Shown: piece after piece, positions 21,001 to 26,733 of the stretch
Layout of the letters: each line of letters starts with the position of its first letter
How positions within the stretch are numbered: position 1 is the first letter of the stretch
UHGV virus genome: UHGV-0379735
DNA from: a virus
Reading direction: 5' to 3' (one strand)
Length of the DNA: 26,733 bases
Position numbers: made by a program

Positions 21001-24000
21001 GCTTGCCGCGATGGAATCAGGGTATTCAGCCTCGAACGCTTTAGGCGTCATGGAGAACATTTCCATAGCCCACATAGCATCAGAGCGGTCATATTGCTTG
21101 CTGTCCTGATCGAAGAAGACGCATGTCGCTGGGTCGTAAACAGGAAGAAGACTGATGCGTCGCTGCTCGTTACTCGGATCCATTTCATCTTCGTAATCGG
21201 CACACATGCGGAAACAACCGAATCCGCCCGTTACAGCATCATCAAATGCGTTATCACACGCTTCGCCACCGGATGTTTCCTGATAGTCAGCGCGGAATTT
21301 GCCGTTCATTTTTTCGGCTAACGCTTCCGATGCCTTGTCATCCTTAGGCCTGAACTTAACGCTGATGCGATTCTGTCGATACTCGCCAATGATGCGATCA
21401 CATTCACGGGCAATCTTATTCAGTTCAAAGCGCGGGTAATGCTCAAACCTGCCTTCATCAAATGAGTAACCAGCGTTTGTGCTGCCTTCCCACTGTGCGC
21501 CGGACACACGTACGAAACGTTGAGCCTCAATAATCTGCTCACGCATATCCTGCGTTGCTGACCAGGCATTATCAAAGTTGCACAGCACCTTGCGATGCCA
21601 GTCAGTCATCTTTTTTTCTGCCATATCAACCTACACCACAAGGAATTGAGTAACTGGAATAGTCGGGTTGCGCAGCCGACTCCGGGCAATGCATACACAT
21701 CATCAGCGCATCAGCCAGGTTAGGAGATGGAATACCGAGCTTCTGCTTCATTTCGACCTTAGTCATAAGCTCCAGCTTCCCGTTGTTATTGAATTTGCGC
21801 TGAATCTGCGTCAGTTCTGCAAACAGCTTCTCCAGCATCTTCTCGCCTATCGCTTCTTTGTCGAAACTCAGCATGTCGTCTGGGTCTGCATACTCACCGT
21901 GAACAACCGCCCGATATGTCAGATACAGCCTGTCAGCCAGCGCGTAATAGAATTGTGCTCGCTTATTGCGGAACACATCACCAATAGTGCGAACGTTGTC
22001 ACCCTGTACGACTTCATCAGCCCATGCTCCGGCCTGATACGGAGCATCTTCATCGAATGGCGATTCGCTGCCCTTGAACATCGTGGCGGTGATTTTCTTG
22101 CCGGAGAACGCTTCCGTTGTCTGTCTGCGTAGCCCGGCACCAACACCATCACCATCCCACAGGTAATGGTCAGCACCGTCTTCAATCGCCAGCGAAGTTG
22201 CCCAGTCAGCACCCTCGTTGATGTCCATCAGCAGACCTTCGGCAATGCGCTTAACTACCGAACCGTGGCGCGATGCATAACCTTTGGCATCCGGCCCTGT
22301 ATCTGATGGGTCATGCGCAGAGACAACAGCGCCTTTCGCTTTCCATCCGAGTTTCTTGTGCGCATCGGTTGCGGCTTCAAGCCATTCACGTTTGATGATT
22401 GCCATATCACTTGCACTTACCGGCTCACCCAGCCAGATGTGACGATACAGTGTCGGATTTCTGCGTTTGCACTCTTCCATCTCCAGACGGAGAACTTCAG
22501 GAAAGTGCGGGTTGTCGGTGTAGTTCACCGTCAGCAGACAAATATCATCGGGAGGATTTACAACGAATCGCTGATAGGTATCGTCGAGGATGTTCTTAGG
22601 GTTGAAGCTCACCCATATTTCGGAAAACGGCTTGCGGATGGTTGGTATCAGAATATCCCATGATTCCTTCGTTACCGCTTCCGCTTCCTCCACCCAGCAG
22701 ATATCAATACCTTCGAGCGATTTAATCTTCGTCGGGTTGTTTTTGATGCCGTAGAACATGAATTCAGCATTCGTTCCGAGATGACGGATCATTGAACGCT
22801 GAATTTCAAACTCAGCCGAATACCCTTCACGCTCAATGGTATCTTCAAGCAGCCGGATTACCGAATCGCTGATACTGTTTTGCAGTTCACGAGCGCAGAG
22901 TATGCGCACAGGCTGCCGACGCGCCGCTTCAACAAGCAGTCTCGCAATTGCCCATGACTTACCGCTACCTCGACCACCTTTGGCGACTTTGTAGCGATGC
23001 GCCTCAATGAACGGTTCAAAGATAGGATTAATCGAGGTCATTTTCCGAATAGAGTACTCATCGGTGATGTTTCAATCTGGATTGCGCCGCCGTCTTTGCC
23101 GGTTAGCTCGTGAGAAGATTGTTCTTTAAATGCCTGAACAGAAACATGACGCCCAAGCAACTCAAGGTTTTTAACCTTATCAGGCCATTTGATTTTCTTC
23201 AGAAGTGCGGCGCTATCTGCGGATACCATCTCTACGACATCCATTCCTGATAGCGTTGTGCGCCATACCTTAGGCCAGTCTTTAATGGGTTTTAGCTCAC
23301 CGTTTTGCAGGAGAATGTCGAGCACATCCATCTGGTCGATTTCAATAAGGCGGTTAAGTACATATTCTGCATTAATACCAACAAGATCATTGCGTTGCGC
23401 TTTCAGTTCGGAGATTCTTAACTTGATGTCAGGTTTTGACAGGTTTTCGGATGCGGTACGGTTAGCTGTCTTTGCGCTGTACCCTGCCCGAATAGCCGCT
23501 TGCGTGGCGTTTAAATCGATGAGGTACTCGCGACAGAACATTTCTTGTTTGTCGGTGAGTGCCATATTTTCCTCTGCTGATAAGGTAAATAAATGAATCC
23601 TGAAATTTTTGAATCAAAGTTCATAATGAACGAAGCAACTTGGCAACGAATTGAAAAGTTAGTAAATACTGAAGATGATATTGGTTTGGTTTTAAGAGCA
23701 CATCTAATTACAGAAGCAATGATTGAGGCATTTTGTTGCGCCGCTGTAGGTAACCAAAATCTATTTGATGGTTTTGGCGAAAACTTAACCATGACCTATG
23801 CCGCAAAAATTCAGCTAGCTGCCAACCTCGGTCTAAATGAACACTCCGTCGCAGAACTTAAACGCCTAAATAGAATAAGAAATGTTCGCTCTCATCAAAT
23901 AGACAACCCGGAAATAACTGACGCAGAAATTGAATCATTACGAACATTTATTAGCCGAGGTGGTCAGGAAGATCTCATTAACTCAGCAAGATTCGGCATA

Positions 24001-26733
24001 AAAGTTGGAGAAATTGAGCTGAGTCTTAACCGTCCAGATGCCAATAATCGTGAAAAATTCATAGCTATTCTTGGCAGCATCATCCTAAGACTCACTAAAC
24101 AAGTTGCAGGACAATAGAGATCATCGACTGAACTAATTGATTGTTTTAGCGCATAAACCTATACCACAAAATAGCCCCTTATCACGCTTCATCCTTCAAT
24201 TCTGGCGTGAACTGTATGCGCTTCACATTGGCGGGAGAGAAATACAGCCACTCTCCCGTCTCGATCGCAAGCGGCACAAAGCCGTTAACCAACTCAGGCT
24301 GAAATCGTGACGTCTTGCCCGTAAAGGTTTCGCCTGTTTGGGTGGTTAACGTGATTTGGTAGATGTCGGACATTGAGAATCTCTTTATCCGCTTGTGGGG
24401 ATATATGGTTAATTATCCTCTGTAGGGGATACTGCCATCACAATGGGGAGAATCATCGTAATGGCAATAAAAACCGCCCAGAGGCAGTTAATCTGAAAGA
24501 CCAAATTTCTTTTTTGCGTAGGATTTTAGAAGCTCTACACCAACATCTTTCAATACCGATAATGGTTGATCGCTAATTGTTTTTAGCTTCTCAAAAACAT
24601 CCTTTTGTTGAAGGGTTTCTGCAAACTCTTGGCCTGATGACGTGAGTCTTACATTGGCTGGCCATTCACGGATTTCATTAAGCCCAATAGTAAGTCCTAA
24701 TTTCTTAGGATCGCCTATTTCTAGAAAATGGTTACTAATATAACCTCTCTCAATCAATTGGTAGTAATGAAAGAGTCCTTTATCGCTGCTTATTTCGTAT
24801 CCAGCTTTTTTAAGGTCATTAGCTGATATCAATGGCCCGCCAGCCTTAATAAAGACCCCTAACATTCCCTTCAAGTATTCCAGATCGGTCTGCATAAATT
24901 ACCTCCATCCTGAGAAATAGAGATAATATTACCCTTAAAATTCTTCATTAACACTAATTTGAACACTGCTCTTTGATGTAGTCCTGCAAGTAGCCGACCT
25001 GCTTCGTCACTGTGACGATTCGCTCTCTGAGGGTGAAATAATCCCGTTCAGCGGAGTCAGTAAGTCCGGGGCTGGAAGCATCGCCCAAGCTGCCGGTGCC
25101 GGTCTTTCCGCTCGCTGGACATCGGGCATTGAAGTGCAGCCCACACTTGCCAGTGCGAACACAACGCTGCAGATCATCAAGCTGCTTTTTCGCATCAGCT
25201 AGTTCTCCGGTGTATTTAGCATCGAGTGCATCAGCATCACGCTGGCGCTGCTGCATGTCAGTAATTGCCGCGTTCGCCAGCTTCAGTTCTCTGGCATTTT
25301 TGTCGCGCTGGGCTTTGTAGGTAATGGCGTTATCACGGTAATGATTAACAGCCCATGACAGGCAGACGATGATGCAGATAACCAGAGCGGAGATAATTGC
25401 GGTTACTCTGCTCATTGCTGCCCCCACAAACAGACTTCACGCTCAATCTCACGACGGGTCATCAGCCCTTTCCATTGCTTACCGCCAGCGTATGTCCAGC
25501 GACGTAGCTGGTCACATGCGCCTTTGATATCACCCTGGTTTATTTTGCGAAGAAGCGTAGATGTTCTGAAATTGCCAGCACCCACGTTGTAGACGAACGA
25601 GTAAAGAGCGCCGCGCGTTGTTTCCGGCATATCGACTTTGATGTACGGGTTAATTTGTCTGGCGACAGTGGCAAGGTCTTTATTCAGGAGGGCTTTGCAT
25701 TCTGCTTCGGTATACGTTTTACCGGGCATGATGTCTTTTCCGGTGTGTCCGTGACATACAGTCCATACGCCAACGATATCTTCGTATGGTATGTAGCTGA
25801 CACCTTCCAGGCCATCGTCACCACTCGGACCAGTGATGAGCACAGACGCTATGGCAACAGCCCCACCACCAATAGCAGCTGCAACAGCCTTGCGTAATGA
25901 CGGCGACATTATTCACCTCTCGCAGCCTTACGCTTATCTTCTTTAATCTTGAAATAAAGATTTGTCAGATACGTCAGCAGGCCAAACAGCAGACTTCCCA
26001 GCACACCTATTGCCACCCACTGGGACGGAGAGACTTTGTCCAGCAGCTGCAGTAACCAGTATCCCGTCCCCACCGCTGACGTGGTGTATGACACACCTGT
26101 TGTGATTTTTTCCATCTGATGTATGTCTCCGTCACCGCCGACAGAAAATGAAAGTAAAGAAAAACAAAAAAGCCGCCAGTGTCACCCACTGACGGCCAAC
26201 GCCGGGAGCCGTGATTATGGCATTCAGGCTCTGCTAAAAATGCCAGATAACATTCCGGCCTCCCCTGATTCAGGTTATAAATGACACAATATCTTGACAA
26301 CATCCGTCACTGTCTGTCAGAAAATGTACTGCCATATAGAAGCAACATGTGAAGTACATCTATCCTTTTGAGCCAGCACCTCTCCACCGAAAGTCAGTGC
26401 TGGCTGTTTTTTTCCTTAATAAGGCATCTGTAACTGAAACAATCCGCATATTGATAATATATTGACAGGCATCATTGCTGTCTGTGAAAAATAAGTCTCT
26501 ACAAACATATAAGGCCTTTTAGCCAGCGTCTTCTTTTTCAGGTCAGTCGCTGGCTTTTTTTATTATGCTGCCGGTGCATTTATCTCCAGCATCAGACTTT
26601 CTATCTCAACGCCATACGCTGCATTTTTTGTAACATCCGTCAGCGTCAGCGCATTCAGTCCCAGTGTCAGACTGTCTTTTATAACCTGGAATGCCGGGCC
26701 AGCCACTCCATTCAGTTTCGGAGTAACCGTGGC

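Follow-up and report, generated by a model that had tools for sequence, protein, structure and literature searches.

The stretch of DNA analyzed here (the window; 26,733 nucleotides (nt) of the virus genome UHGV-0379735) is a P22-like podovirus prophage located beside a tRNA-Arg(CCT) gene. Between its terminase and lysis genes lies a plus-strand gene for a 174-amino-acid (aa) HEPN-domain protein, which is distantly related to HepS (STM14_3211) of the Gifsy-1 prophage of Salmonella Typhimurium 14028 (PDB 9OIJ/9OIK; Sargen et al, Nature 2026, PMC13043305). An earlier note had placed this open reading frame (ORF) at the terminase–lysis junction, in agreement with its flanking genes:

23038..23565, minus strand: terS, small terminase subunit (Terminase_2, E 3.5e-39), transcribed divergently from the HEPN gene; delimits the cargo slot on the left
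23566..23592, plus strand: 27-nt spacer between the terS start codon and the HEPN ORF, carrying the ribosome-binding site (sequence read directly)
23593..24117, plus strand: stand-alone HEPN-domain protein of 174 aa, distant HepS homologue (phrog_5483)
24954..25427, minus strand: Rz spanin, last lysis gene (Phage_lysis, E 3.6e-37); right boundary of the junction

The HEPN ORF runs from an ATG at 23593 to position 24117, stop codon included. While the end and the length of 174 residues given before were correct, the start at 23566 was not, as this position is the first base past the terS start codon and the span took in the spacer. A Shine-Dalgarno-like TAAGGT at 23581–23586 is positioned 6 nt (23587–23592) ahead of the ATG, and a terminator scan found none after the gene. 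Since every Pfam-supported late gene, from the tailspike (6338) to the holin (26115), is carried by the minus strand, the HEPN ORF is the only credible plus-strand gene of the late region, as had been proposed. Its GC content of 0.383 contrasts with 0.492 in the late region (6338–23565) and 0.515 in the lysis genes. The low GC noticed before is thus real, but the AT-rich tract is not limited to this gene, because a 135-aa ORF at the same junction also has a GC content of 0.38.

The following parts of the HEPN gene are referred to below:

23674..23727, plus strand: first core helix, residues 28–45 (D28, R35, H37, E41, E45), equivalent to D35..E48 of HepS
23806..23835, plus strand: helix with K72 and L79-G80-L81 (KxxLAxxLGL), equivalent to K76 and L83 of HepS
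23878..23895, plus strand: putative catalytic motif R96-N97-V-R-S-H101 (Rx4H), followed by I103, assigned by conservation and HepS alignment
23968..24114, plus strand: variable C-terminal part, residues 126–174, with a beta-hairpin (135–144) and a last helix (152–173); candidate sensor surface

The RNVRSH motif occupies residues 96–101, and the protein belongs to a large family. An exhaustive profile search retrieved 366 cluster representatives at E ≤ 1e-3, most of them single-domain proteins of 160–200 aa. Close homologues number 16, and full-length homologues of 174–204 aa are present in Escherichia, Enterobacter, Citrobacter, a Salmonella phage, Pantoea, and phi80. The homologue alignment contains 24 invariant residues; all 17 homologues compared, with identities as low as 31%, retain R96, N97, H101, D28, D29, R35, H37, E41, E45, and K72. 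In a diverse set of 77 family representatives with a mean column identity of ~21%, conservation reaches 97% for R96, 99% for N97, and 99% for H101, and RNxxxH is found in 75/77; E41 (100%), H37 (96%), D28 (91%), and K72 (91%) are likewise conserved. The motif to which the earlier note had drawn attention is therefore no product of chance. One might suspect a chance ORF or a decaying, non-functional remnant from the low GC, the rarity of the gene, and a truncated relative (P0012), yet full-length homologues across genera with 24 invariant residues, the 366 family representatives, and a confidently predicted fold contradict this. This explanation is effectively refuted by conservation and its probability is practically nil: the gene is real and conserved.

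Conservation is concentrated in a core of residues 25–52 and 69–125, while the N-terminus, the 53–68 loop, and the residues past 125 are much more variable. The C-terminal segment 126–174 displays the highest column entropy of the family (3.1–3.4 bits versus 2.2–2.5 in the core). An AlphaFold2 model computed from the homologue alignment (predicted local distance difference test score (pLDDT) 89.6, predicted template modeling score 0.86) is all helical save for one short beta-hairpin at residues 135–144, so that the all-helical protein anticipated from sequence needs only this correction. Two helices are predicted for the N-terminus (pLDDT about 90); at the other end, the last helix runs to residue 173 with no tail behind it. 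Features of the HEPN superfamily are seen both in the predicted all-alpha up-down helical bundle and in an Rx4-6H motif with a polar residue after the arginine. In this superfamily, two HEPN motifs brought together in a dimer make up the composite site for RNA cleavage.

HepS provides the frame in which these features can be read. It is a prophage-borne, single-protein abortive-infection system that is non-toxic alone, and at rest it forms an inactive tetramer that keeps R100 and H105 buried and out of alignment (PMC13043305). Its trigger is a 32-residue segment of J, the tail-tip protein of siphoviruses, centered on F924; this peptide binds distal to the active site and forms a composite beta-sheet with the N- and C-terminal segments of HepS (S13, D15, S202, T203). 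Upon binding, contacts between Y20 and I107 lead to the opening of two composite active sites (PMC13043305). Activated HepS cuts the anticodon loops of tRNA-Thr, tRNA-Ile, and tRNA-Ser, for which R100 and H105 are essential, while F66, K78, and L83 are needed for the tetramer, on which activity depends, and N101 and K71 are modeled as tRNA contacts (PMC13043305). For comparison, the full-length HepS sequence (210 aa) was assembled from three database fragments, and its numbering agrees with every residue named in PMC13043305.

Sequence and structure methods converge on this protein. In a Foldseek search against the PDB, four HepS chains rank on top (probability 1.00, template modeling score 0.54–0.57), with YggD/MtlR next. 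The 77-member profile detects HepS in the PDB at E 2.2e-14 over HepS residues 25–133 and nothing else significant, whereas a PDB search with the single sequence gave nothing significant, HepS being reached only by the family profile. Direct comparison yields 32% identity over 60 residues by BLASTP (E 3e-5), and hhalign aligns residues 28–124 with HepS 35–127 (E 2e-5). Reciprocally, a phmmer search with HepS matches 140/170 collected sequences, nearly all of them family members (the set includes the three HepS fragments), and an intermediate sequence, P0123, is 33% identical to HepS and 25% to the window protein. The HEPN-like fold for which the earlier note had asked is thus predicted, with a match to HepS in both sequence and structure. 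A tblastn search of the phage collection with HepS gave no match, and a search of viral structures in BFVD gave no meaningful match for the window protein (best E 0.44).

Annotation libraries pass over the protein. Pfam (2025), NCBIfam (2026), and PADLOC (2023) contain no match to it, and only the unannotated PHROG phrog_5483 covers it; family members give sub-threshold Pfam matches, mainly to HEPN-type families, and sub-threshold matches to CARF-HEPN models in PADLOC. These missing matches are uninformative because HepS itself falls below every Pfam and PADLOC threshold and the libraries predate it.

At the residue level, R100, N101, and H105 of HepS correspond to R96, N97, and H101, the allosteric I107 to I103, the tetramer-interface L83 to the conserved L79, and D35/E48 of the first helix to D28/E41. 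K76, for which no role is stated in PMC13043305, corresponds to K72. F66 of the tetramer interface is ambiguous, pairing with F58 in the profile alignment and falling in an insertion in hhalign. In contrast, HepS residues 1–24 and 132–210, which hold the trigger-clamping S13, D15, S202, and T203, have no counterpart: profile, BLASTP, and hhalign give no alignment outside HepS residues 25–133, and the match on the window side ends at residue 131. Only 73 residues follow the motif in the window protein compared to 105 in HepS, making its C-terminus about 30 shorter, and its predicted helical N-terminus and beta-hairpin 135–144 stand in place of the HepS termini. As the motif aligns while the tails do not, the catalytic module is shared with HepS but the HepS sensor is not. 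The absence of these tails bears on trigger specificity and not on the catalytic mechanism.

The structural ranking also raises the question of a non-catalytic HEPN-fold regulator like MtlR or YggD, which would act by protein–protein binding, for example on a transcription factor. That these proteins follow HepS in the fold search is in its favor. However, HepS scores clearly higher by sequence and structure methods, MtlR and YggD chains are absent from the family-profile matches even at E ≤ 10, and neither the protein nor its 77 relatives match Pfam MtlR. Moreover, near-absolute conservation of R, N, and H at ~21% mean column identity points to selection on a catalytic site, and the settings of the family, which comprise prophage cargo, an integron cassette, and a putative defense island, do not suit a sugar-operon regulator. 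We rejected MtlR/YggD membership on the lack of a Pfam or profile match and of a chromosomal regulatory context, and consider such a regulator quite improbable.

To place the gene in its genomic context, we compared nine loci spanning 31% to 98% identity: the window, E. coli EC931, phi80, Salmonella phage FSL SP-016, prophages of Enterobacter cancerogenus, Citrobacter koseri, and Pantoea ananatis, and two metagenomic contigs. All 9/9 have the HEPN gene in the interval from the lysis cassette to terS or cos, in antisense orientation to the late operon. The same junction is thus occupied in otherwise different prophages, a check that the earlier note had suggested, as the packaging modules vary among the loci (Terminase_2 and Terminase_6C; lambda-type GpA and DUF1441; Mu-F or portal_3 versus the P22 portal). 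The first ~85 nt of terS (window 23480..23565) are near-identical in five prophages with different cargo (the window and loci L003–L006), and similarity between them ends exactly at the terS ATG. This marks the terS start codon as a sharp boundary of recombination, delimiting a slot whose cargo is exchangeable. In E. coli KSC64 and ERP001, this lysis–terS slot holds plus-strand ORFs of 90 aa and 78 aa, respectively; we considered them as truncated HEPN copies and rejected this, as they are unrelated cargo. These prophages fit the view of the junction as a recurrent site for accessory genes.

The EC931 prophage (L003:7054-8915) is degraded, with a truncated holin and an IS5 beside early-region genes. 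Its HEPN gene is intact and thus persists in a defective prophage.

Two further ORFs occupy the junction downstream of the HEPN gene:

24182..24373, minus strand: 63-aa ORF, convergent with the HEPN gene (phrog_6581, E 1.8e-31; GC 0.51)
24488..24895, minus strand: 135-aa cargo ORF (phrog_585, E 1e-26; weak DUF2513; GC 0.38)

The 63-aa ORF has its sole homologue in the Enterobacter cancerogenus prophage (54% identity); five other loci carry unrelated small ORFs at this position. In E. coli EC931, the DNA of this ORF is conserved, while the ORF itself lacks an annotation by the Prokaryotic Genome Annotation Pipeline (PGAP). The 135-aa ORF has no PADLOC, NCBIfam, or PDB sequence match; a terminator-like hairpin lies just downstream of it on the minus strand (24489–24472). 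Because the E. coli KSC64 prophage carries a same-length homologue of it but no HEPN gene, the 135-aa ORF is cargo independent of the HEPN gene.

These neighbors bear on whether the protein could be the toxin of a toxin–antitoxin pair with an unrecognized antitoxin, either a small protein or an antisense RNA, comparable to HEPN–MNT or Tha/Ith. The position of the 63-aa ORF would suit a partner, but as it is common to one Enterobacter prophage only, we rejected a conserved partner or antitoxin gene, and no neighbor gene is conserved among the sampled HEPN loci. HEPN–MNT (HepT/MntA) membership was rejected as well, since no MNT nucleotidyltransferase antitoxin gene or other partner is adjacent in any locus. 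Open frames antisense within the gene vary in position and length across eight loci, so that a Tha/Ith-like overlapping antisense gene was likewise rejected. Moreover, one relative is a single-gene integron cassette, and HepS is non-toxic alone. We therefore regard a toxin–antitoxin pair as very improbable.

Outside phages, two distant relatives are informative. P0026 (201 aa; GCA_008757025.1, VYYA01000005.1; L020:1-12606, gene 6001-6606) is this single-gene cassette, located in a chromosomal integron-like array with about 16 copies of a ~130-nt attC/VCR-like repeat (TAACAAA...GCGTTA), which bracket the gene at 5892–5996 and 6610–6736. Chromosomal integron arrays have been reported as defense-gene reservoirs. 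P0123 (L013:6001-6573), the intermediate between HepS and the window protein, lies in a mobile-element-like region with ParB_N, DUF932, and RadC and adjoins an AAA_15/AAA_21 ATPase with a 235-aa partner as well as AbiEi/AbiEii, a setting that looks like a defense island.

A ribonuclease (RNase) that serves the phage could act against co-resident or competing prophages, in host takeover during lytic growth, or in an addiction function that makes loss of the prophage costly. The gene moves along with phages, the free phages phi80 and FSL SP-016 among them, and HepS interferes with the induction of competing prophages to the benefit of Gifsy-1 (PMC13043305). On the other hand, the orientation antisense to the late operon in 9/9 loci argues against late lytic expression, an addiction module would need a conserved antitoxin or partner, of which none exists among the loci, and relatives also occur outside phages, in the integron cassette and in the island beside AbiE. 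We judge a phage-serving role unlikely; competition between prophages overlaps with the explanation that we favor and is not a true alternative to it.

With a predicted HEPN fold, homology to HepS, a conserved motif, solo status, and a fixed slot and orientation, we consider it reasonably probable that the protein is a self-contained sensor–effector HEPN RNase of the HepS type that belongs to the cargo of a prophage and brings about abortive infection. The inference of a candidate defense gene in the earlier note was correct, though on thin evidence, and is supported by HepS homology, motif conservation, and the slot. By analogy to HepS, we infer that it is expressed in the lysogen and aborts infection, as well as its RNase activity, RNA target, oligomeric state, and trigger. 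In this model, the protein would be produced in the lysogen without depending on the late operon that it opposes, and its resting form would be an inactive oligomer whose paired protomers do not have their R96/N97/H101 motifs in alignment. Binding of the variable, non-catalytic surface by a protein from an infecting or co-resident phage would let the paired HEPN motifs rearrange into a composite active site. Cleavage of RNA, most likely at tRNA anticodon loops, would then stop translation and abort the infection.

The trigger probably differs from that of HepS. This is expected because the N- and C-terminal tails with which HepS clamps the J peptide are missing, and it is further suggested by the host, a podovirus and therefore devoid of a lambda-J-type tail tip. 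Likewise, phi80 has a HepS-family gene (PHI80_63) and a J protein (L018:4631-8209) that keeps Gln and Phe at the positions of Q922 and F924 of lambda J (L017:106-3504; GQTF versus NQIF), so that a J-sensing copy would risk self-activation. The phi80 argument is weak, as this segment is only 29% identical between the two J proteins. The F924S mutation in J lets lambda escape HepS, and Gifsy prophages carry Ile at this position (PMC13043305).

Several points weigh against a HepS-type defense function. Identity to HepS amounts to ~26–32% over only ~95 core residues, and the tetramer-interface K78 and the tRNA-contacting K71 are replaced by Q74 and M67 and are not conserved. The fold alone is no proof of catalysis, since MtlR and YggD have it too without being known as nucleases. 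The structure is a predicted monomer, with oligomerization and autoinhibition transferred by analogy. Only the orientation of the gene speaks for its expression in the lysogen: a consensus scan and a scan of eight upstream regions revealed no convincing sigma-70 promoter in the spacer or the 5′ end of terS, but weak candidates only, the best in the window being an extended −10 element TGcCATATT at 23560–23568. Finally, the gene is rare, occurring in 2/5,426 complete E. coli genomes and 3/50,697 phage records, and the relative P0012 is truncated to 95 aa.

A more tentative extension of the HepS-type model is possible, although we lean against it: phrog_5483 could represent a distinct HepS-family sensor class with the HepS catalytic core, in which the variable beta-hairpin and C-terminal helix take the place of the peptide-clamping tails and recognize another phage protein, and the antisense placement could serve as a self-immunity device. 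On induction, Q-antiterminated late transcription would collide with HEPN transcription and yield antisense RNA across the gene. If true, this would extend solo-HEPN immunity to phage types other than those bearing lambda J, and it would constitute a third solution to prophage autoimmunity, beside trigger avoidance by HepS and the Ith inhibitor of Tha.

The remainder of the window documents the host prophage:

2308..3240, plus strand: formate/nitrite-transporter-family host gene, outside the prophage
3316..3390, plus strand: tRNA-Arg(CCT), likely attachment site and prophage end
3516..4706, plus strand: tyrosine integrase, adjoining tRNA-Arg(CCT)
5151..6314, plus strand: Acyl_transf_3 O-antigen-modifying acyltransferase (lysogenic-conversion gene), after the integrase
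6338..8548, minus strand: tailspike with P22 head-binding domain and GDSL-like lipase/acylhydrolase domain (E 9e-11)

P22-type features comprise the portal, the coat, gp7/gp20-type ejection proteins, a gp10-type stabilization protein, and the head-binding domain of the tailspike, and the morphogenesis genes share ~96% DNA identity with Sf101, Huey, and CUS-3. The GDSL-like domain of the tailspike suggests a receptor-destroying activity of the deacetylase or esterase type rather than an endorhamnosidase. In the ERP001 prophage, tRNA-Thr and tRNA-Asn genes lie between Q and the holin (L005:5313-5468), and none are present in the part of the window prophage seen. As Thr tRNAs are the main targets of HepS, phage-borne copies might serve as a counter-defense.

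The definition of solo HEPN proteins in which sensing of a phage protein and execution of abortive infection are combined dates only from 2026, with one characterized example and one known trigger. The gene described here is a new, divergent, and uncharacterized member of this HepS-like family, a kind of system known since January 2026. It provides a second test case, combining the HepS catalytic core with different termini, a different prophage slot, and a podovirus host in which self-triggering by a J protein is impossible. If its trigger were identified, one could see how a constant HEPN scaffold changes its sensing specificity, and whether such single-gene defenses are generally stored in the lysis–terS "bor slot" of lambdoid and P22-like prophages. 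Since the PADLOC, Pfam, and NCBIfam libraries miss both this protein and HepS, such genes are now annotated as hypothetical proteins.

Among known systems, lambda bor is comparable in position only. It sits right after Rz/Rz1 and before the packaging genes, against the late operon, in the classic lysogenic-conversion "moron" position, while its product is an unrelated outer-membrane lipoprotein conferring serum resistance. MtlR and YggD (PDB 3BRJ, 6KCR, 3C8G) have no detectable sequence relationship to the window protein; they are chromosomal regulators working via protein contacts, as in the MtlR–HPr complex, and neither known nucleases nor mobile cargo. DUF4145, Abi_2/AbiD-F, RiboL-PSP HEPN, HepT/MNT, and Csm6/Csx1 share the HEPN fold and the Rx4-6H motif, whereas the window protein reaches no curated threshold of these families and has no fused or adjacent MNT, CARF, or other domain. 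Tha (tail-activated HEPN anti-phage system) of Staphylococcus aureus prophages is likewise a prophage-encoded HEPN RNase defense, set off by a phage structural protein. In contrast to the proposed HepS-type system, Tha is a non-specific RNase that sits in the lysogeny module and needs the overlapping antisense inhibitor gene ith, an antisense transcriptional arrangement that governs the balance between immunity and autoimmunity (PMC11087260); the authors of the HepS study call Tha an entirely different system (PMC13043305). HepS itself remains the nearest relative. The window protein differs in its length (174 aa compared to 210 aa) and is encoded by a P22-like podovirus without a J protein. 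With 26–32% identity in the core, it lies outside the "closely related" clade of 35–50% identity defined in PMC13043305, where 393 HepS homologues are listed. It nevertheless has in common with the HepS family a length of less than 250 aa, a single domain without a conserved partner, and its location in a prophage.

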